Below the pieces are notes generated by a model, which saw only the letters and a program-made list of their open reading frames with translations, made no database searches and was not told the origin of the DNA. A DNA stretch of 24,000 nt from Thermococcus sp. JdFR-02 (GTDB taxonomy: Archaea; Methanobacteriota_B; Thermococci; Thermococcales; Thermococcaceae): NCBI GenBank assembly GCA_002009975.1, contig MTLP01000042.1:292418-316417 (forward strand), given 5' to 3'. Position 1 is the stretch's first letter; every line of letters starts with the position of its first letter. Position numbers and translations under genes: made by a program. Below are positions 7,793-19,674 of this stretch, in pieces.

Positions 7793-7877
7793 CGCCAACA
7801 CCTCTTGAGTTTAACAACTCTCAAAAAAGCCTTATAAACTTTATAGAGTTTAAATAAAACAATAGTAGGTGAGCAAA

Positions 7878-10800
7878 ATGAAGGCAGTATATAGAGAAAT
7901 GTGTCCTAACTGCGAAGAGAGAATCACTGATGAGCGCTTATATATGAAACATCCATGTGAGAATTGTCTCGATGTCAAAATTCGAGCTGAGACTTATTTT
8001 GATTTGCTTAAAGCTGTCAGAGAGGCTTTAAAAGTTAAAAGAACTCTAAAACATTGGGAGGAGTTGTATTCTGTTGAAAGAAAGCTTAAAGAAGTTGAAG
8101 AGCTCTTTGAAAAAGCAACTGGATTTAATTTTTGGAGTGCACAGAAGACTTGGGTACGGAGACTAATAAAAAACAAAAGCTTCTCAATAATTGCCCCGAC
8201 TGGAATGGGCAAAAGTGTTTTTGGCAGCTTTATGTCACTTTATTATGCCAAAAGAAAAAAGAGGAGCTATATTGTTCTACCCACAACGCCACTAGTCAAA
8301 CAGACAATAAAGAGAATACAAACTTTTGCTGAAAAAGCGGGAATTGAAGTGAATTTAGCATACTATCATGGAGAGCTAAAGAAAAAAGAGAAGAAAGAGA
8401 TGATGGAGAAGATACAGAGTGGAGATTTTGACATATTGATAACCTCCGCACAATTCCTCGCAAGGAATTTTGACATAATAAAGGATAAGAGATTTGATTT
8501 CATCTTTGTTGATGATGTCGATGCTTTTTTAAAAGCCTCCAAAAACATTGACCGCTCCCTCATATTGTTGGGATTCACTGAAGAAGTTATCCAAAAAGCT
8601 TGGGAAATTATACGCCTTAAAAAGCAGCTTGCAAGATTGCTAAACTCGAAAAAACGAGAAGAGCTTAATGAACTAAACAAACAAATTGAAGCCCTTAACA
8701 AGGAAATCCAAAAATATAAACGGGAAAATAAAATTGGAGCATTAATTGTAGCCTCTGCAACTGGAAGGGCAAGAGGAGATAGAATTAAGCTATATAGAGA
8801 GCTTTTAGGTTTTGAAGTCGGAAGCGGAAGAAGTGCATTAAGGAATGTTGTCGATACTTATCTATTCCCACAAAAGAGCCCTGAAGAGCATGTTGAAGAA
8901 CTTTTAACAAAGCTTGGAAAAGGCGGATTAATCTTTGTTTCAATTGATCAAGGGATTGAATATGCTGAAAAGCTAACTCAATACCTACAAGAAAGAGGAT
9001 TTAAAGTTGAATTGGTTTCTGCGAGAAGTAAAAAAGGTCTTGAGAAGTTCGAAAATGGTGAGATTGACTATTTAGTAGGTGTGGCAACATATTATGGGTC
9101 AATAGTCAGAGGTTTAGATTTGCCGCATTTAATTAGATTCGCTATATTTACAGGTGTTCCAAAGTTCAGGTTTAGTCTCGATTTAGAACAACCCACAATT
9201 TATAGAGTCCTCGGGCTAATGAGCGAGATTATGGAATTTTTAAGTGATGAGGATAGAAGAGAAGCCGAAAAACTGCATGCAAGATTAAGGCGTTTGATAC
9301 AAAACATTCCTCAATTTGAGTTATTGAAGATTGAAGAAGCTTTGGCTGAGGGATTACCCTTAGAAGGCTTCCACAACCATGTTTTAGAAGTGTTTAAGAG
9401 TGCAGTAGAGTTCCTTAGGACAGTTCTAAGGAAAGAAGAAGTTTTAAGAAAAATTGAGGAGGATCCATTCGTTAGTCTGAAGAAAGAGGGAGAGAAGTGG
9501 TACATTGAAATTCCAGACGTTAGAACATATATCCAAGCAAGTGGAAGAACTTCACGTTTATTTGCAGGTGGTATTACAAAAGGTTTAGCGGTTACGATTA
9601 TTGACAACGTTAAAGTGTTTAACGGATTAAAGAGACAAATGAGATGGCGTTTCCAAGAATTTGAGATTAAGCCTTTAGAAGAACTCAATTTAGAAGAGAT
9701 TCTAAAAGAGATTGATGCAGATAGAGAGAAAGTAAGGCTCATTATAGAAGGAAAGATTAGCGAAAAAACAAGAGATTTAGTCAAATCTGCATTGATGATT
9801 GTTGAATCACCAAACAAAGCTAGAACTATAGCGAGCTTCTTTGGACACCCAAGTAAAAGAAGAATTGGAGATTTAGTTGCATATGAAGTCAGCATTGGAG
9901 ACAGAATGCTAACTATCTTAGCAAGCGGTGGACATATGTTTGACTTGGTGACAAACGAGGGCTATCACGGTGTAGAGCTTAGAGAAAATAATGGAAAGTT
10001 ATTCTTCCTTCCAATTTATGACACCATAAAGCGCTGTAGAGAGTGCGGACATCAATTTGTTGATTGGGAAGAAAGAGGTATTTGTCCGAGATGCGGTTCA
10101 AGAAACGTTAGAGATGCCTTGGAAAATGTAATCGCAATGAGAGAAATTGCCCAAGAAGTTGATGAGATACTAATTGGAACTGATCCCGATGTAGAGGGAG
10201 AGAAAATTGCATGGGACATCAGGAACGTTCTATCTCCCTATACACAAAATGTAAAGAGAATAGAGTTCCACGAAGTTACGAGACCAGCTATCTTGAAGGC
10301 TTTAAAAGAAGCAAGGGATATCAATGAATATAGAGTGAATGCCCAATTAGTGAGAAGAATAGAGGATAGATGGATTGGTTTTGAACTCAGTCAAAAGCTC
10401 TGGGAAGTCTTTGAAAACAAGAACCTTTCTGCTGGAAGAGTTCAAACTCCAGTCTTGGGATGGGTAATTCAAAGGTATAAAGAATTCAATGAAAGCGAGA
10501 CTGAATTCTTGGCATTAATCCTAGAAAATGGCATAAATGTAGTGATGGAAGGTGTAAAAGGAGAAATTGAAGAAGTTACGGTTGAGGATGTTTTAATCGA
10601 AGAGAGAGAAATCAATCCATTACCGCCATATACAACAGATACCATGCTTCAAGATGCTTCCCGCTATTTAGGATTTTCAGCATCACACACAATGCAGCTT
10701 GCACAAGATTTGTTTGAACTCTCTTTAACTACCTACCACAGAACAGATAGCGCTCATGTGAGTAATACGGGAATTGAAGTTGCTAAAGAATATATTACAG

Positions 10801-11516
10801 AGGAAATAGGCGAGGAATACTTTGCCCCAAGAAAATGGGGTGAAGAAGGTGCTCACGAATGTATAAGACCAACAAGACCAATTGATACTGGAAGGTTAAT
10901 ACAGTTAATAAGGGACGGAGTTATAACCCTAGCAAAGCCTTTAACGAGAGACCACTTCAGGCTTTACGATTTAATATTCAAACGCTTCATGGCAAGTCAA
11001 ATGAAAGCTGCGAAAGTAGTTTATGAGAAAGCAATAATTGATGCAAAAATTGGAAAAGCCGAAATTGAAGGATACATTGATGTTTTCTTTGAAGGATGGT
11101 CAAAATTAAAACCGCTCCCACTAAGGCAGCTACCTAAGCTTGAGAAGGGACAAACAATTAAAGTAACCGAGACCAGGAAATGGAAAGCACCAAAAGTAAG
11201 CTTATACACTCAAGGAGATCTAATTGCATTGATGAAAGAGAGAAAAATTGGAAGACCATCAACCTATGCTAAGATCGTCAAGACCCTATTGGATAGGCAT
11301 TATGTTATAGAGACCAGCAAAAGAAAACGCTTAGTGCCAACTGAATTAGGAACCAAGGTTTATCATTACTTGCTTAGCAAATATAAGGAACTAGTTAGTG
11401 AAGAAAGGACAAGGCAGCTGGAAGAGCTTATGGACTTAGTTGAGGAAAGCAAGATTGATTACCAAGATGTGCTGAATGATATGTATGCAGAAATAAAACG
11501 TTACGTTTTGGGATAA
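7878..11516 (+). CDS. rgy: reverse gyrase (helicase-like domain fused to type IA topoisomerase)
   Basis: N-terminal Zn finger (CPNCEE..HPCENC). Helicase motifs APTGMGKS and FVDDVD. TOPRIM ([15 protein letters not shown]). Topo IA active-site region LTTYHRTDS. About 1212 aa with no intein insertion. The track GTG 7869 lies within the SD AGGTGA, so ATG 7878 ([12 protein letters not shown]) is the likely start. Confidence 0.95.
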
Positions 11517-14784: not shown

Positions 14785-14841
14785 GCATTTATTTCCAATT
14801 TCAGATTTTATCATTTCTTTGTTGATAAGTTGATAGTTAAA

Positions 14842-14850
14842 GTTAAAAAT
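14842..14850 (+). promoter_or_regulatory. putative TATA (GTTAAAAAT) for the hps-phi cluster
   Basis: Lies about 46-54 nt upstream of ATG 14896. SD GGGAGGT is at 14882-14888. Confidence 0.4.
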
Positions 14851-14895: not shown

Positions 14896-16116
14896 ATGAT
14901 TTTACAAGTCGCTTTAGATTTAACAGACATTGAAGAGGCTATTTCTATTGCTGAAAAAGCCGCTCGTGGTGGCGCTCATTGGCTCGAAGTAGGAACACCT
15001 TTAATTAAAAAAGAAGGCATGAGAGCAGTTGAGCTCATGAAGAGAAGATTCCCAGATAGAAAAATCGTTGCAGATCTAAAGACTATGGACACTGGAGCTC
15101 TAGAAGTTGAAATGGCTGCAAGACATGGTGCAGATGTTGTGTCAATTCTCGGTGTTGCAGATGATAAAACAATAAAAGATGCAGTTGCAGTTGCAAAAAA
15201 ATATGGAATCAAGATTATGGTGGATTTAATCGGTGTTAAGAATAAGGTAGAGAGAGCAAAGCAACTTGAAAAAATGGGAGTTCACTATATTTTAGTTCAC
15301 ACTGGAATAGACGAACAAGCTCAAGGTAAAAATCCTCTTGAGGATTTAGAAAAAGTTGTTAAGGCTGTTAAAATTCCAGTTGCAGTTGCTGGGGGATTAA
15401 ATTTAGAGACAATCCCTAAAGTAATTGATCTTGGAGCTACGATTATAATCGTCGGAGGAGCAATTACAAAATCAAAAAATCCTCAAGAGATTACAAGGAA
15501 GATTCTAGACTTATTCTGGGAGGAATATATGTTGACCATAAGAAAAGCTATGCATGACATAACAGACCATATAGATCACGTAGCTGATGCTTTAAGGCTC
15601 GATGAAGTTAGAGGAATGGTAGATGCCATGATTGGAGCAAATAAAGTATTCATCTATGGTGCTGGAAGGAGTGGATTGGTCGGTAAAGCCTTTGCTATGC
15701 GTTTAATGCACCTCGACTTTAATGTCTATGTAGTTGGCGAGACAATTACACCTGCCTTTGAACCTGGAGATTTGCTAATTGCAATTAGTGGTAGTGGTGA
15801 AACAAGAACTATAGTAGATGCTGCTGAAATTGCAAGGAAGCAAGGGGGAAAAGTTGTTGCAATAACATCTTATAAAAATTCAACCTTAGGAAAATTAGCT
15901 GATGTCGTTGTAGAGATACCTGGAAGGGCAAAAACAGATATTCCAACGGATTATATAGCAAGGCAGATGATAACACAATATAAGTGGACTGCTCCAATGG
16001 GGACGTTGTTTGAAGACTCAACAATGGTCTTTTTAGACGGTATAATAGCCCTATTGATGGCAACATTTCAGAAGACCGAAAAAGATATGAAGAGGAAGCA
16101 TGCGACATTAGAATAG
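14896..16116 (+). CDS. hps-phi: bifunctional 3-hexulose-6-phosphate synthase / 6-phospho-3-hexuloisomerase (Hps-Phi fusion, RuMP pathway)
   Basis: The N-terminal half has the OMPDC-like Hps pattern (MILQVALDL..ADLKTMDTG..LVHTGIDEQ..VAGG). The C-terminal half is a SIS-domain Phi (VFIYGAGRSGLVGKAFAMRLMHL..AISGSGET). The 406-aa fusion is characteristic of Thermococcales. Confidence 0.92.
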   Translation: MILQVALDLTDIEEAISIAEKAARGGAHWLEVGTPLIKKEGMRAVELMKRRFPDRKIVADLKTMDTGALEVEMAARHGADVVSILGVADDKTIKDAVAVAKKYGIKIMVDLIGVKNKVERAKQLEKMGVHYILVHTGIDEQAQGKNPLEDLEKVVKAVKIPVAVAGGLNLETIPKVIDLGATIIIVGGAITKSKNPQEITRKILDLFWEEYMLTIRKAMHDITDHIDHVADALRLDEVRGMVDAMIGANKVFIYGAGRSGLVGKAFAMRLMHLDFNVYVVGETITPAFEPGDLLIAISGSGETRTIVDAAEIARKQGGKVVAITSYKNSTLGKLADVVVEIPGRAKTDIPTDYIARQMITQYKWTAPMGTLFEDSTMVFLDGIIALLMATFQKTEKDMKRKHATLE

Positions 16117-16125
16117 GGGATTCGG

Positions 16126-16890
16126 ATGGAAGATTTCCTTCATTTTAATCATCTTTTTGTGGGAATAGGTAACAACGGTTCTCGTATCGTTAAGAATCTG
16201 AATATTAAGAATGCTGGGAGAGTTGTAGTCGATCCAGCAGATTACATCCTAAATAGAAAGGAGCTTATTAGAGATATAAAGGAATTTTTTGGAAAATTAG
16301 ATGACAACACAATAGCTTGGTTTTTGTTTGAGAACAAGCCCATCAATATAGAAATCTCGAAGCAAATTAATTATTATACCCCAAGCAAGGTAATTAGACT
16401 GGCGTATGTTCTAACTCCACATACCGAGCTTGTTGAAATGAATAAGCCAGAATGGGCAGATATGTTTGAAACCGTATTTTATGATTCCCTCAGAGAGCTT
16501 TTGAAAGAATATCAAGAGATACCCTTAAAAGATGCCTTTGAAATGGCGAGCAGATATATAGGTGGAATGTTCTCCAAGCTTTACTATTATCTTGAAAATG
16601 ACATGCTCATCAATGTTGATTATGCTGATCTGTTTGCTATGATAAAAGGAAGAAATGTTGGGATATTAAGGATACTTAATAAAGTTGATTTTGATTGGAA
16701 CTGGGGAATTTGGGAGAGAGGTCTCATAAACATTAGAGCTGGAAGACGCGTTCCATTAAGCAAAGCCCATTTAATTCTCAATAGATTTCAAGATCTTTTA
16801 AGCAAAAAGGATATCATATGGGGAGTTCAGATAGATGAGGAAGTCGAGAAGGATATCGAAATATTAGCGCTTTTAGTTAAGAGGTGGTGA
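16126..16890 (+). CDS. degenerate FtsZ/tubulin-superfamily protein (GTP-binding loops lost, T7 loop and C-terminal domain retained)
   Basis: 254 aa. [12 protein letters not shown] aligns with FtsZ T1 (VVGCGGAGNN). [23 protein letters not shown] aligns with [47 protein letters not shown] aligns with ATIIWGATIDENLENTVRVLLVITGV (M. jannaschii FtsZ, from memory). The T4 signature GGGTGTG position reads [19 protein letters not shown] upstream. Confidence 0.65.
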   Translation: [254 protein letters not shown]

Positions 16891-16891
16891 A

Positions 16892-17536
16892 ATGAGAGCA
16901 ATATTTTTTGACATAGATGAGACTCTCTTGAGTGAGAGACCTTTAATCATGCTATTTTTGCCTCAAGTTTACACAGAACTTTCAAAAAGATTGGGAATAC
17001 CTAAGGATAGCGCTAGATTGAAATTTTTAAAAGAACTCATGGAGCGCAGGAATACTTATGAATGGCATGACTGGAACTTCTTCTTTGAACTTTTTGGAAT
17101 TGATATTAGGTATGAAAACTTACTAAAAGCGTATCCCCACAAACTTCATGTATTTCCAGACGTTAAGCCAACACTAAAGTGGCTTAAAGAAGAAGGATAT
17201 AAGCTCGGTATAATAACAAGTGGTCCAGAATATCAAAGGTTAAAACTTAGATTAACGAAACTCGATAAATATTTTGATATCATAGTAACAAGGGAAGATG
17301 TAAAAACTGTGAAGCCAGATCCCCTAATATTCCTCTACGCATGTCAAAGAATAGGGGTTGAACCACAGGAAACTGTCATGATCGGAGATAATCTGCAACA
17401 AGACGTTTTGGGAGCAAAGAACTCCGGAATGATAGGCGTGTGGATAAATAGAAATGGAGATGAAGATTATCACTTTGCTGATTATGAGATAAAAACCCTT
17501 TATGAGCTAAGAAAGATTTTAGGTGGTGCAAAATGA
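16892..17536 (+). CDS. HAD-superfamily phosphatase (subfamily IA-like)
   Basis: Motif I FFDIDETLL (DxDxT), motif II IITSG, motif III KPDP, motif IV GDNLQQDVLGAKNSGM. The start lies 1 nt after the upstream stop, with SD GAGGTGGTGA. Confidence 0.85.
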   Translation: MRAIFFDIDETLLSERPLIMLFLPQVYTELSKRLGIPKDSARLKFLKELMERRNTYEWHDWNFFFELFGIDIRYENLLKAYPHKLHVFPDVKPTLKWLKEEGYKLGIITSGPEYQRLKLRLTKLDKYFDIIVTREDVKTVKPDPLIFLYACQRIGVEPQETVMIGDNLQQDVLGAKNSGMIGVWINRNGDEDYHFADYEIKTLYELRKILGGAK

Positions 17537-17712
17537 AGGAGATATACAAAAACGAGGGGATTTTCTATGAATATAAGAAGGAAAAAGTAAAGCTTGAAAA
17601 TGGAGATGAAATTATCCATAAGCAAGAGAGACCTACAAAGCTTTGGTGGGAACTTAAAGAAGCTATAAAAGGCAAAAAAGTTAAAATAATCGTCTATGAA
17701 CTTGGAGAATGA
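17533..17712 (+). CDS. small hypothetical protein, 59 aa (one residue under the ORF-track cutoff)
   Basis: Hand-translated: MKEIYKNEGIFYEYKKEKVKLENGDEIIHKQERPTKLWWELKEAIKGKKVKIIVYELGE. Its ATG overlaps the HAD stop (ATGA, 17533-17536) and an SD-like GGTGGTG lies 5 nt upstream. It fills an otherwise unexplained 190-nt gap. Confidence 0.45.
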   Translation: MKEIYKNEGIFYEYKKEKVKLENGDEIIHKQERPTKLWWELKEAIKGKKVKIIVYELGE

Positions 17713-17728
17713 CCTTTCTGGTGATTCC

Positions 17729-18190
17729 ATGAAAGTAGTCTATGAGAAAGAAATCGATGCAAGTAAGATAGTGGTATCACCGAGACCAGTTTGGAAGTGT
17801 AAGGCTTGTCCAATGTATGGCAAAAATCCCTCTTGTCCACCTTATGCTCCACCTTGGCAAGAAGCTAAAGAATGGATCAGGAATTTTAAAAGGGCTTTGG
17901 TAATAAAGTTTGAAGTTGATTATGAGAACTTTGAAACGGAAAAGAGAAAGGCTCTTTTATACCTATTAAGAAAGGAAGAAGAACTATTTAGGAATGGAAA
18001 TTTCTATGCATTCGCTCTTTTTCCTGGAAACTGCAATCTCTGTGAAGAGTGTGAGTTTCAAAAAAGTAAAAAATGCGTAGAGCCAACAAAAGTTAGGTTT
18101 TCTTTATGTGCTGTTGGAATTGAAATAAAGTCATTTGCTAAGGTAAATTTTAGCGAAAGCGTTTTGTATGGGATAATACTCATTGATTAA
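17729..18190 (+). CDS. DUF2284-type predicted metal-binding (Cys-rich) protein
   Basis: CKACPMYGKNPSCPPYAP and CNLCEECEF..KKCVEP..RFSLCAVGIE match the conserved Cys pattern I recall for DUF2284. The likely start is ATG 17729 (MKVVYEK) with SD GGTGA 4 nt upstream. The track start 17696 overlaps the small ORF. Confidence 0.7.
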   Translation: MKVVYEKEIDASKIVVSPRPVWKCKACPMYGKNPSCPPYAPPWQEAKEWIRNFKRALVIKFEVDYENFETEKRKALLYLLRKEEELFRNGNFYAFALFPGNCNLCEECEFQKSKKCVEPTKVRFSLCAVGIEIKSFAKVNFSESVLYGIILID

Positions 18191-18202
18191 AGAGATGATG
18201 TT

Positions 18203-18673
18203 ATGAAAGCGTACATAACCATGCTTGGTCGCTCAACATGGGCAATGATTAATGCGTATTATGCAATTGTAATGCACAAAAAATATCGTCCAGATGAAAT
18301 ATACATCTTTTTAGAGAATATTTACATTAACAAGCTTCCAAAGGCTATTGAGGCTTTAAAAATAATCTCTAGAGCTTTTGGATTTGAGCCGAGAATAAGC
18401 TATGAAATAATTGAAGAAGCAAACTTTCTAGAGGCTGATAAAAAGATTGGAGACCTTTTAAAAGAGCTTAAGGAAAAAGGTTATGAGATAACGATTGAAA
18501 TAACCTCCGGAAGGAAAGCGTTAGTTGCAGGGGCTTTAATACACGGTGTTCCATTAAAAGTCAATCACGTTTTTTATTTAGCAATAAAAAATCTTGAATT
18601 TGCAAACAGACCTTACATGATGATTCCCTTACAGATACAAAAGCTAAAAGATTTCATGGAGGGAAAAGATTGA
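18203..18673 (+). CDS. stand-alone CARF-like (Csa3 N-terminal domain-like) Rossmann-fold protein, 156 aa
   Basis: MKAYITMLGRSTWAMINAYY.. (beta1-LGxST loop), ..EPRISYEIIE.., ..ITIEITSGRKALVAGALIHG (beta4-[DE]xTxGxK loop). These are co-linear with Sulfolobus Csa3 residues 1-120 from memory. No wHTH or effector domain follows. Confidence 0.55.
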   Translation: MKAYITMLGRSTWAMINAYYAIVMHKKYRPDEIYIFLENIYINKLPKAIEALKIISRAFGFEPRISYEIIEEANFLEADKKIGDLLKELKEKGYEITIEITSGRKALVAGALIHGVPLKVNHVFYLAIKNLEFANRPYMMIPLQIQKLKDFMEGKD

Positions 18674-19674
18674 AAGAAGAAATAATATCAAAGCCCGAGT
18701 TGCAACTCCTAATCAATCTCCTTCAAAGAAGTGAACTTAACGTTAGTTATCCTCTTTATGGCAATTTTCCCCTTCTAAAAGCTTGGGTAGAAGATGATGG
18801 CTACAAAATCAAAGTTTTAGCCAATGAAGGGGATTTTTCAAGAGTTCTAAGAGATAAGAGGGAATACATATATGATCTTCCAACATATAGAGATTTTCAC
18901 GAATGCTTCTTAGCAGCAGGGATTTTGCAATATGCTAATATCGATGAGTTCTTAGAGCGCTTGGAAGGGTATAAATCTTTAACAAAGGGGATTATCTTTG
19001 CTCCAGATACAAATTTACTCTATCATGCTTTCATATCCAATTTTAAACCCTTAAAGGGTTATGAAATCGTCATTGTTGATACTGTTAAAAAAGAAATTGA
19101 GAATGCCATGAACTTTAAATATAAGCCAAGTCAATTAAAAGAGCTAAGGAGAATACTGCACAATTATGAACTTTTAAATGAATTCAGCAATAGGAGAATG
19201 AAAAAATCGAGAAAAGCTGCTTATATAGCCTTGAGAGAATTTGAAAAACTAAAGAGTAGATCGATTGAGGTAGAAAGTATAAAAGAAGAGACCCACACTA
19301 ACGACGAGCTAATAGTAAAGACATTAAAAAAGTTTGACAAAGATACACCTACTTTGACTGTTCTCTTGACAGCAGATATAGTCATGACGGATATAGCCAA
19401 GCTTGAAGGTATCGAGTATTTTCTTTTTGAATATCCTCATAAAAAGCTCGATGAACTTTTTGCAACTCCTTATCAACTTCGTTCGCTGCTTTTTAACCTC
19501 GCAACTGTATTTGGCGTAGTTGAGGTGAATAAAGTTTTGATTTTTGGAGAATTTGGAGGGAAAGTTAAACTTAATGAACTAAAATTAAGGTTTCACAGAG
19601 GAGGGCTTTATGAAGAACATAAGTTCCACTTAAACATATGCAGAGAAATAATAAAATTAGGAATAGAAAGATGA
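18670..19674 (+). CDS. multidomain PIN-domain nuclease, 334 aa
   Basis: PIN acidic tetrad in canonical order: D113 (IIFAPDTNLL), E142 (VKKEIEN), D212 (HTNDELIVKTL), D236 (VLLTADIVMTDIAKLEGIEY). The TTG start overlaps the upstream TGA (TTGA), with SD GGAGGG 8 nt upstream. There is no in-frame ATG until residue 147. Confidence 0.6.
   Translation: MKEEIISKPELQLLINLLQRSELNVSYPLYGNFPLLKAWVEDDGYKIKVLANEGDFSRVLRDKREYIYDLPTYRDFHECFLAAGILQYANIDEFLERLEGYKSLTKGIIFAPDTNLLYHAFISNFKPLKGYEIVIVDTVKKEIENAMNFKYKPSQLKELRRILHNYELLNEFSNRRMKKSRKAAYIALREFEKLKSRSIEVESIKEETHTNDELIVKTLKKFDKDTPTLTVLLTADIVMTDIAKLEGIEYFLFEYPHKKLDELFATPYQLRSLLFNLATVFGVVEVNKVLIFGEFGGKVKLNELKLRFHRGGLYEEHKFHLNICREIIKLGIER

Follow-up and report, generated by a model that had tools for sequence, protein, structure and literature searches.

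A conserved FtsZ-like protein with a remodelled GTP-binding face, encoded beside hps-phi in Thermococcus and Pyrococcus

Introduction

Genomes of the Thermococcales mostly encode three proteins of the tubulin superfamily (TSF), namely FtsZ1, FtsZ2 and CetZ (Brown and Duggin 2023, PMC9856176). Each genome carries one CetZ, whose gene lies beside type IV pilus genes, and a further TSF protein of high divergence was found only in Thermococcus sp. AM4 and T. gammatolerans, where it was judged likely to be strain-specific or redundant (PMC9856176). Other divergent branches of the FtsZ superfamily, FtsZl1 and FtsZl2, possess GTP-binding loops and reside in membrane-remodelling neighbourhoods (Makarova and Koonin 2010, PMC2875224). 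In plants, the chloroplast division protein ARC3 contains an FtsZ-like domain and directly inhibits Z-ring assembly. Here we analyse a gene, hereafter ftsZ-like, in a stretch of 24,000 nucleotides (nt) from Thermococcus sp. JdFR-02 (assembly GCA_002009975.1, contig MTLP01000042.1, positions 292,418 to 316,417 of the forward strand). We refer to this whole stretch as the window, and nucleotide coordinates without a locus name are positions within it.

An initial annotation, made from the sequence alone, had described the 254-amino-acid (aa) product of this gene as a truncated FtsZ/tubulin homologue that has lost its GTP-binding loops and retains the T7 loop. Our analysis indicates that the protein almost certainly represents a conserved family of FtsZ-derived pseudo-GTPases, present in the Thermococcales and in one sister lineage and encoded by the second gene of an operon comprising hps-phi, ftsZ-like, a HAD phosphatase gene and a gene for a 59-aa protein.

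16126-16890, plus strand: FtsZ-like pseudo-GTPase gene, ATG start, 254 aa, second gene of the operon

Results

Similarity to FtsZ in sequence and predicted fold

The translated open reading frame (ORF) is exactly the sequence quoted in the initial annotation. When it was compared with the PDB by phmmer, M. jannaschii FtsZ (1W58/1FSZ) was matched at E 2.4e-5, with residues 71-180 paired to 140-250 and residues 199-250 to 285-337; these are the pairings of the H7/T7 region and the C-terminal domain that had previously been drawn by eye. A profile built from 31 family sequences improved the 1FSZ match to E 1.2e-7, ahead of 3ZID, which we take to be M. thermophila CetZ (E 0.066), and of bacterial FtsZ (E 0.09 or weaker). 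Alignment of the family with bona fide FtsZs by hhalign gave a probability of 98.6% (E 5.6e-16) over residues 120-250. An AlphaFold2 (AF2) model computed from the family alignment reached a predicted local distance difference test score (pLDDT) of 88.3 and a predicted template modelling score (pTM) of 0.88, and in a Foldseek search of the PDB with this model the top 50 of 50 matches were FtsZ (E 1e-12 to 2e-10; template modelling score normalised to the query, 0.63-0.73). Model and Foldseek matches show the two-domain FtsZ/tubulin architecture, with a Rossmann-like N-domain, the core helix H7 and a C-terminal beta-sheet domain. The similarity to FtsZ is well past chance, and phmmer, profile, hhalign and AF2/Foldseek agree with the first description of a shortened protein of the FtsZ/tubulin fold.

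The standard family models do not capture this relationship. A Pfam scan of the 254-aa protein gave no match to PF00091 (Tubulin), PF12327 (FtsZ_C) scored 16.2 bits, below its gathering score of 27, and TIGR00065, the canonical FtsZ equivalog, scored 22.2 bits, below its cut-off of 295.2. The protein is a member of the FtsZ/tubulin superfamily at the level of the fold; it fails the sequence tests that define a canonical FtsZ (T4 signature, equivalog score and tail) and does not fit CetZ.

Distribution and sequence constraint

A word-indexed search of 5.8 billion proteins returned 72 homologue clusters, 46-94% identical to the query and 245-262 aa long, plus two shorter entries (182 and 232 aa). 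All named clusters are from Thermococcus, Pyrococcus or 'Thermococci archaeon', and members include T. kodakarensis, T. onnurineus, P. abyssi and P. horikoshii. Most carry the name 'hypothetical protein', and a few are called 'FtsZ/tubulin family protein' or 'cell division GTPase'; NCBI gives the first of these two labels to few members, P0069 of T. gammatolerans among them. Matched by strain and name, the divergent TSF protein of AM4 and T. gammatolerans is probably a member of this family. A HMMER profile search of 1.84 billion representatives at 50% identity recovered one full-length representative and several fragments and, after a wide score gap, spurious repeat proteins and true FtsZs, the latter with E-values of 1e-8 or weaker. 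Among these representatives the family was found nowhere beyond Thermococcus/Pyrococcus and one small sister branch.

Several other candidates were rejected. Among the ankyrin-repeat and other long matches (P0079, P0082, P0086 and P0088), which we regard as spurious, those checked with Pfam were repeat proteins without an FtsZ domain that matched in numerous short stretches. The short matches P0091, P0095, P0098, P0100, P0102-P0105 and P0107 were fragments of true FtsZ with strong FtsZ_C scores, and L034 from Methanomicrobiales was a truncated true FtsZ bearing GGGAGTG. Libraries of phage (PHROGs) and defence (PADLOC) families gave no meaningful matches.

Because the Pfam and NCBIfam thresholds are unmet and the database names are mostly 'hypothetical protein', the gene could be taken for a decaying pseudogene remnant, as the initial annotation had allowed, or for a chance ORF. 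However, the median pairwise ratio of nonsynonymous to synonymous substitution (dN/dS) among unsaturated pairs is 0.19, near that of the neighbouring HAD gene (0.15; hps-phi, 0.05), the length is constant across the clusters, and the alignment of the 31 sequences contains 49 invariant columns. Therefore, the gene is no pseudogene; with the confident fold prediction and the fixed synteny described below also speaking against it, we regard this explanation as refuted. By per-element entropy, the most constrained blocks are S6/T6, S7, T7/H8, the Trp loop with S8, and S9 ('DIIWG').

A remodelled top face and an ancestral bottom face

The secondary-structure elements of the AF2 model, by residue, and the sequence features discussed below are as follows.

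N-domain: S1 8-14, H1 15-23, S2 31-35, H2 37-42, H3 44-55, S4 62-69
N-domain, continued: H4 72-84, S5 90-96, short H5 109-113, S6 116-120, H6 123-130
Core helix and T7: H7 134-157, T7 158-165, H8 166-173
C-domain: S7 177-184, 11-residue loop, S8 196-206, H10 211-224, S9 225-237, S10 244-253
16162-16179, plus strand: T1-like glycine loop G13-I-G15-N-N-G18, aligned to FtsZ T1 (GVGGSG) by HMMER and hhalign
16330-16353, plus strand: position of the T4 signature, ENKPINIE, between S4 and H4 of the model
16465-16488, plus strand: S6/T6 block FETVFYDS on the former nucleotide (top) face, the most conserved stretch
16603-16629, plus strand: T7 loop and start of H8, MLINVDYAD, aligned to FtsZ LINVDFAD
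16687-16722, plus strand: Trp-rich loop in place of helix H9, W191-x-W193-G194-x-W196-E-R-G199

The distance from T1 to T4 is 57 residues (G13 to N70), compared with 88 in the archaeal FtsZ P0087 (G34 to G122); therefore, about 31 residues, the S3/T3 segment, are gone. The S3 strand is also absent from the AF2 model, so the deletion of the T2/T3 segment that had been read from the sequence stands. At the T4 position, where FtsZs have an invariant GGGTG.G (P0087 G122-G128), the tubulin signature [SAG]GGTG[SA]G is absent and no glycine remains (family consensus EDKPxNxE), again as first reported. Further along, the invariant Asn of FtsZ T6 (P0087 N190) is aligned with the invariant Y119/D120, the Asp/Asn position of FtsZ H7 is aligned with S142, a site at which family members have Ser, Gly, Ala or Thr, and H5 is shortened relative to FtsZ. 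With S3/T3 deleted and the T4 signature, the T6 Asn and the H7 Asp/Asn replaced, the determinants of GTP binding appear to be gone, and the protein is predicted not to bind GTP.

In the glycine loop near the N terminus, G13 and G15 never vary among the aligned members and G18 shows at least 90% conservation; the loop lacks the GG doublet and the following Asn of FtsZ T1. Aligned separately, the N-terminal half paired residues 7-51 weakly with S1-T1-H1-S2 of FtsZ (E 0.002), whereas the pairing with T4 had E 0.64. The assignment to T1 made by eye is thus the preferred one, although the alignment is weak: the N-terminal correspondence to FtsZ draws on weak profile scores and on topology. A forced global profile alignment instead placed GIGNNG on the T4 signature with very low confidence; we rejected this pairing in view of the N-half alignment and of the five, not three, N-domain strands in the AF2 model. 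A classical Rossmann site for nicotinamide or flavin adenine dinucleotide was also rejected, as S2 ends in a residue that is Asp in some members and Asn in others, like the 'NTD' motif of FtsZ.

The former nucleotide face is remodelled and strongly constrained rather than decayed. Seven of the eight residues of FETVFYDS are invariant (F114 and T116-S121), and the block has the lowest-entropy 12-residue window of the protein; that the most conserved stretch lies here suggests a new role of the former GTP-pocket face. The initial claim of lost GTP-binding loops was accordingly correct for T3 and T4, and the losses reach further, to the T6 Asn, the H7 Asp/Asn, H9 and the tail, but it missed that this face has been rebuilt and is strongly conserved.

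On the opposite side of the protein, N163, D165, A167 and D168 are invariant in 31/31 aligned members, which bears out the retention of T7 noted at the outset (N163-D165-D168), and N-x-D-x-A-D is likewise invariant in FtsZs. S9 reads 'IIWG' here and IIWGA in FtsZ. The bottom face (T7 N-x-D-x-A-D, H8 and S9 'IIWG') is thus ancestral and nearly unaltered. Between S7 and S8, the AF2 model has no helix and hhalign opens a 16-residue gap relative to FtsZ, indicating deletion of H9; in the loop that takes its place, W191, W193, G194, W196 and G199 are invariant. The protein ends with S10 and an invariant W254 without a linker or tail, and some members have short variable extensions of 3-20 residues. 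In FtsZ, the C-terminal linker and tail peptide bind membrane tethers (SepF in archaea). Both H9, the lateral-contact/M-loop region, and the linker/tail that serves as the membrane-tether handle are absent.

A shorter sister branch retains T7 and the C-terminal domain

The exhaustive HMMER search also recovered P0081, a protein of 178 aa without a Pfam match. It has three relatives, and the four, together termed the mini branch, are encoded at the following loci.

Locus L035, 1581-2117: mini-branch gene
Locus L036, 1745-2281: mini-branch gene
Locus L037, 1197-1565: mini-branch gene
Locus L038, 10001-10537: mini-branch gene

In hhalign comparisons, the mini branch matched the Thermococcales family with 97.9% probability (E 4.5e-13) and no gap at H9, whereas its match to FtsZ had 91.7% probability (E 7.7e-7) and a 17-residue gap. 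Both groups have the H9 deletion, a W-[DE]-R-G-L motif, a C-terminal aromatic residue, N-x-D-x-A-D and an hps gene directly upstream. Because of the hhalign scores, the missing H9 gap and the shared motif and aromatic end, we place the mini branch nearer to the Thermococcales family than to FtsZ. It aligns with the window protein only from about residue 59 onward, so that S1-T1-H1-S2-H3 are absent; H7 is shortened and T7 is kept (N89-x-D91-x-A93-D94, LVNVDLAD). An AF2 model from three sequences was unusable (pLDDT 44), and a scan of metagenomes gave no further mini-branch loci.

The host (assembly GCA_964436705.1), an archaeon of low GC content (35%), has an aRF1 that shares only 50-53% identity with Thermococcales aRF1s and 46-49% with those from Theionarchaea and Methanofastidiosa; therefore, it represents a deep sister lineage. 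On 4/4 contigs the mini gene lies 13-14 nt downstream of a gene for a stand-alone Hps of 207 aa with 58% identity to the Hps half of the window enzyme, and the four loci contain neither the HAD gene nor the 59-aa ORF. As Hps adjacency is found in both lineages, the linkage predates their split. The core shared by the clade is T7 plus the C-terminal domain, and because the mini branch retains these while lacking S1-H3, T1 included, the shared function of the clade cannot need a nucleotide site of its own.

These observations bear on two explanations that assign a function to the remodelled top face. In the first, the former GTP pocket (GxGxxG, T-P-x-x-E-L, K-P-x-W and FETVFYDS) would bind another phosphorylated metabolite, such as ribulose-5-phosphate (Ru5P), hexulose-6-phosphate, fructose-6-phosphate, or flavin mononucleotide (FMN) or a riboflavin intermediate, and thereby switch an interaction with a partner. 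The elements that line the pocket show strong conservation and no decay, the glycine loop resembling T1 is kept, and the other operon products act on sugar phosphates and, through the HAD phosphatase orthologous to TON_0338 (see below), on FMN. However, the mini branch retains the linkage to Hps without S1-H3 and T1, so that the pocket is not a clade-wide function; Pfam and NCBIfam contain no ligand-binding family that matches the protein, conservation is the sole basis of this explanation, and we consider a ligand sensor improbable.

In the second, the protein would form nucleotide-independent homopolymers, T7 of each subunit docking with the rebuilt top face of its neighbour, and such static filaments would organise enzymes of the ribulose monophosphate (RuMP) pathway. 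Conservation in the protein is highest at its two longitudinal faces, and the acidic residues of T7 could pair with the conserved K107/K71 region. In contrast, the H9 lateral-contact helix and the tether tail are absent, the mini branch has no complete top domain, and there is no sign of polymerisation; this possibility therefore seems to us very improbable.

A conserved operon with hps-phi as its first gene

The remaining elements of the operon are listed below.

14839-14850, plus strand: element resembling a B recognition element (BRE) and TATA box, AAAGTTAAAAAT, upstream of hps-phi, read from the sequence
14896-16116, plus strand: hps-phi, first gene, 406 aa (NF041755, 546 bits, cut-off 500; Pfam OMPdecase and SIS)
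16881-16890, plus strand: Shine-Dalgarno-like sequence GAGGTGGTGA for the HAD gene, within the last ftsZ-like codons K-R-W-stop (AAG AGG TGG TGA)
16892-17536, plus strand: HAD-IA phosphatase gene (TIGR02253 family), third gene, 214 aa (TIGR02253, 181 bits, cut-off 170)
17533-17712, plus strand: 59-aa ORF (MKEIYKNEGIFYEYKKEKVKLENGDEIIHKQERPTKLWWELKEAIKGKKVKIIVYELGE), fourth gene, its ATG overlapping the HAD stop (ATGA)

In the window, 9 nt separate ftsZ-like from the hps-phi stop (16116) before it, and 1 nt separates it from the HAD start (16892) after it. The three genes follow one another in this order in T. kodakarensis, P. abyssi and T. onnurineus and in all 29 distinct Thermococci reference-genome loci whose flank is long enough (31 when duplicate records are counted). 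Most intergenic distances there are -8 to +10 nt, and the gaps are -8 to +14 nt in most loci when the mini-branch loci are counted as well. Between ftsZ-like and HAD, the genes show small overlaps to gaps of +4 nt in most loci, as far as approximate start calls allow. Hps-Phi is 85-93% identical across loci. Directly after HAD, tblastn found the 59-aa ORF in 31/31 Thermococci loci that reach that far (41-71% identity); it has no match in Pfam, PDB, PHROGs or PADLOC. The placement between Hps-Phi and HAD given in the initial annotation is therefore confirmed, with the addition of a conserved fourth gene that had been overlooked, being shorter than the 60-aa threshold of the ORF list. The same annotation had considered a position beside hps-phi unexpected; it is instead the most constant feature of the family, found in 29/29 Thermococci and 4/4 mini-branch loci, and any functional model must therefore explain the link to Hps.

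The Shine-Dalgarno-like sequence for HAD within the end of ftsZ-like suggests translational coupling of the two genes, and the conserved 'KRW' ending may be under a dual constraint as protein and RNA. In nearly all Thermococci loci, an element of the AAAG(T)TTAAAA type precedes the hps-phi ATG by about 45-55 nt, and the BRE/TATA-like element is likely to be the operon promoter. About 20 nt upstream of it, and thus about 70-90 nt ahead of the hps-phi ATG, many Thermococcus loci (L001, L017, L020, L022, L027, L032 and others) have a TTGACAT-N4-6-ATGTCAA palindrome, which may be an operator. The window has TATCA-N9-TGATA at this position (14809-14827), a sequence present in only 1 of the 36 upstream regions. 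No 'TGM' operator of TrmB/Tgr was found near the operon.

The HAD protein of the window matches 4YGQ/4YGR/4YGS at E 2.4e-100, and the HAD protein encoded downstream of ftsZ-like in T. onnurineus (L039, 3758-4402) is identical to the chain of these structures over 214 residues (100%). By sequence, the window HAD protein is thus the orthologue of the crystallised TON_0338, which is an FMN-recognising HAD phosphatase according to a title cited in PMC9850720; TON_0336 is HPS/PHI (PMC7143981). The gene between them would then be the ftsZ-like member of T. onnurineus, TON_0337 by position, and gene order points to TK0476 as the member of T. kodakarensis. Ru5P, the product of Hps-Phi, is a precursor of riboflavin; in combination with the FMN recognition of the HAD protein, this may link the operon to flavin metabolism.

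The tight spacing of hps-phi and ftsZ-like has one exception, in a metagenome-assembled genome (MAG) of Thermococcus, where a gene for a 233-aa protein of the histidine-phosphatase/phosphoglycerate-mutase family (RHGES motif) lies between the two in the same orientation (L027, 3204-3905). The MAG S013_metabat2_scaf2bin.004 has two separate contigs (L018 and L020), each with a full arginase-like/hps-phi/ftsZ-like/HAD locus, and may be either a mixed-strain bin or a case of duplication.

The constancy of the linkage supports an explanation in which the FtsZ fold has been repurposed without any contact with FtsZ, the protein serving as an accessory subunit, scaffold or regulator, of Hps or Hps-Phi. 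Its remodelled top face, its Trp loop and/or its T7 aspartates would bind Hps; for example, T7 might reach into the Mg2+/sugar-phosphate site, or the protein might serve to organise the oligomers of Hps-Phi. Neighbouring gene pairs with deep conservation often code for physically interacting proteins, and here Hps-then-ftsZ-like order is maintained in both branches, whose hosts share only 50-53% aRF1 identity. In addition, the short gaps fit translational coupling, Hps is the only conserved neighbour of the mini branch, the sole gene inserted between the two (in L027) encodes another phospho-sugar-type enzyme, and FETVFYDS and the Trp loop are novel conserved surfaces without a counterpart in FtsZ. 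Nevertheless, T7-H8 and S9 still have ancestral FtsZ sequence in both branches, which is unexpected if the partner of this face changed. Moreover, most Hps-bearing archaea and bacteria lack ftsZ-like in the exhaustive search, so that Hps generally needs no such partner, and no fusion of ftsZ-like to Hps was found among the 1.84 billion representatives. On balance, we hold an exclusively Hps-directed role to be somewhat unlikely, but it is the main rival of the cap or GAP model favoured below and hardly less probable than that model.

The window also contains a DUF2284 metal-binding protein gene (17696-18190) followed by a Csa3-like Rossmann-domain gene (18203-18673; E 5e-5, below the Pfam cut-off) that overlaps a gene for a 334-aa PIN-domain protein (18670-19674) by 4 nt. 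This trio is also present in L005, and T. kodakarensis, P. abyssi and T. onnurineus have GLUCM-like_C and HD genes instead. The reverse gyrase of the window (7869-11516) is a protein of 1215 aa with no intein, and that of T. kodakarensis at the same position has 1711 aa with intein/LAGLIDADG domains.

Discussion

In FtsZ filaments, the T7/C-domain face enters the GTP pocket of the next subunit and provides the catalytic aspartates. Oliva, Cordell and Lowe reportedly described in 2004 that the FtsZ C-domain with T7 is an independently folding module that activates the GTPase of the subunit below, and one-faced FtsZ mutants are said (Redick in 2005, Du in 2018) to poison filaments at sub-stoichiometric amounts. 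We tentatively favour the explanation that the ftsZ-like protein works as a one-sided FtsZ subunit, capping FtsZ or CetZ or serving as a GTPase-activating protein (GAP) for them, although we consider this a possibility rather than a probability. It is favoured because the bottom face is ancestral in both branches (LINVDYAD and LVNVDLAD, versus LINVDFAD in FtsZ), whereas the top face has been rebuilt or deleted.

According to this proposal, the T7/C-domain face would dock on the GTP-bearing top face of FtsZ1, FtsZ2 or CetZ, either in the monomer or at a filament end, and T7 of the ftsZ-like protein would supply the catalytic aspartates in trans. As its own top face would refuse a further subunit, the filament would be capped, or FtsZ-GTP would be converted to FtsZ-GDP. 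The dosage of the protein would be set by co-transcription with Hps-Phi and would thus scale with the demand for Ru5P, tying cell division or cell shape to the supply of this nucleotide precursor. The remodelled top face and the Trp loop would be candidate surfaces for a new partner, possibly Hps. The docking on FtsZ/CetZ, the activity as a cap or GAP and the coupling to metabolism are thus all predicted from the retained and altered faces and from the genomic context.

Several points weigh against a filament cap or GAP. The only signal from genomic context is Hps, with no division genes, which this model explains through co-regulation only, and tight coupling to a presumably abundant metabolic enzyme would yield a large amount of filament poison. 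Capping also leaves unexplained FETVFYDS and the invariant Trp loop, neither of which belongs to the T7 face. In addition, the loss of GTP binding is deduced from motifs alone, and as the GxGxxG T1-like loop is kept, some phosphate-bearing ligand may bind. Capping or GAP activity and an accessory role for Hps can also be combined in one protein, with the novel face on Hps and the ancestral face on FtsZ/CetZ.

The family adds a fourth TSF protein across Thermococcus and Pyrococcus, one that surveys of the archaeal cytoskeleton have almost wholly missed even though T. kodakarensis and Pyrococcus are model archaea. It represents a natural dissection of FtsZ, in which the GTP-binding face is rebuilt or, in the mini branch, largely deleted and the GTPase-activating face is frozen in its ancestral form. 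The adjacency to Hps in lineages with about 52% aRF1 identity hints either at a link from pentose-phosphate and nucleotide-precursor metabolism to the cytoskeleton or at a use of the tubulin fold outside the cytoskeleton. It is conceivable, if doubtful, that this is the first tubulin/FtsZ-superfamily lineage recruited into central metabolism, be it as a bottom-face/GAP module of the RuMP operon that couples Ru5P synthesis to FtsZ/CetZ dynamics or as a nucleotide-free structural or regulatory subunit of Hps. What the searchable sources lack is the family's range within Thermococcus and Pyrococcus, its anatomy as a pseudo-GTPase, the operon of four genes and the mini branch; the homology labels of a few members were already known. 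The family is open to direct testing, since T. kodakarensis is genetically tractable and crystal structures exist for the neighbouring HAD protein.

Comparison with known systems

In contrast to the TSF protein reported for two strains (PMC9856176), the family described here spans Thermococcus and Pyrococcus with fixed synteny. Thermococcales are not mentioned in the survey of FtsZ/tubulin evolution by Santana-Molina et al. (2023), and we found no relevant paper in the searchable literature that names those locus tags of the family and its neighbours that were looked up. CetZ is likewise a member of the tubulin superfamily; however, CetZs keep the GTP site, their genes lie among pilus genes rather than beside hps-phi and HAD, and the match to the presumed CetZ structure 3ZID is far weaker than that to 1FSZ (E 0.066 versus 1.2e-7). 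FtsZl1 and FtsZl2 are similar in being divergent branches of the FtsZ superfamily recognised by sensitive sequence analysis and genome context. They are set apart from the present family by description only, and PMC2875224 reports no such family in Thermococcales.

The closest relative of solved structure is the euryarchaeal FtsZ1 of M. jannaschii (1FSZ/1W58), which gives the best sequence match and shares the two-domain fold, T7, H7, H8, the order of S7-S10 and 'IIWG'; a T1-like GxGxxG is present in the window protein as well. Unlike FtsZ1, the window protein lacks S3/T3, GGGTGTG, H9, the N-terminal extension, the linker and the tail, has the T6 Asn and the H7 Asp replaced, and is 254 aa rather than about 365 aa long; in addition, its gene lies in a metabolic operon.

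For the proposed activity, ARC3 is the best functional precedent, being a protein whose FtsZ-derived domain inhibits the ring instead of building it. ARC3 differs in that it is eukaryotic and multidomain (FtsZ-like, middle and MORN), with no metabolic-operon context, and a shared ancestry of the two derivations from FtsZ is unlikely. SulA and MciZ are small, unrelated inhibitors that bind the bottom face of FtsZ, and FtsZ subunits with one working longitudinal face cap filaments in laboratory constructs. The mini branch, which essentially consists of T7 and the C-domain, resembles the isolated GTPase-activating C-domain of FtsZ. In contrast to the laboratory constructs and to SulA and MciZ, the ftsZ-like protein would be a natural paralogue that offers its bottom face to the top face of FtsZ.

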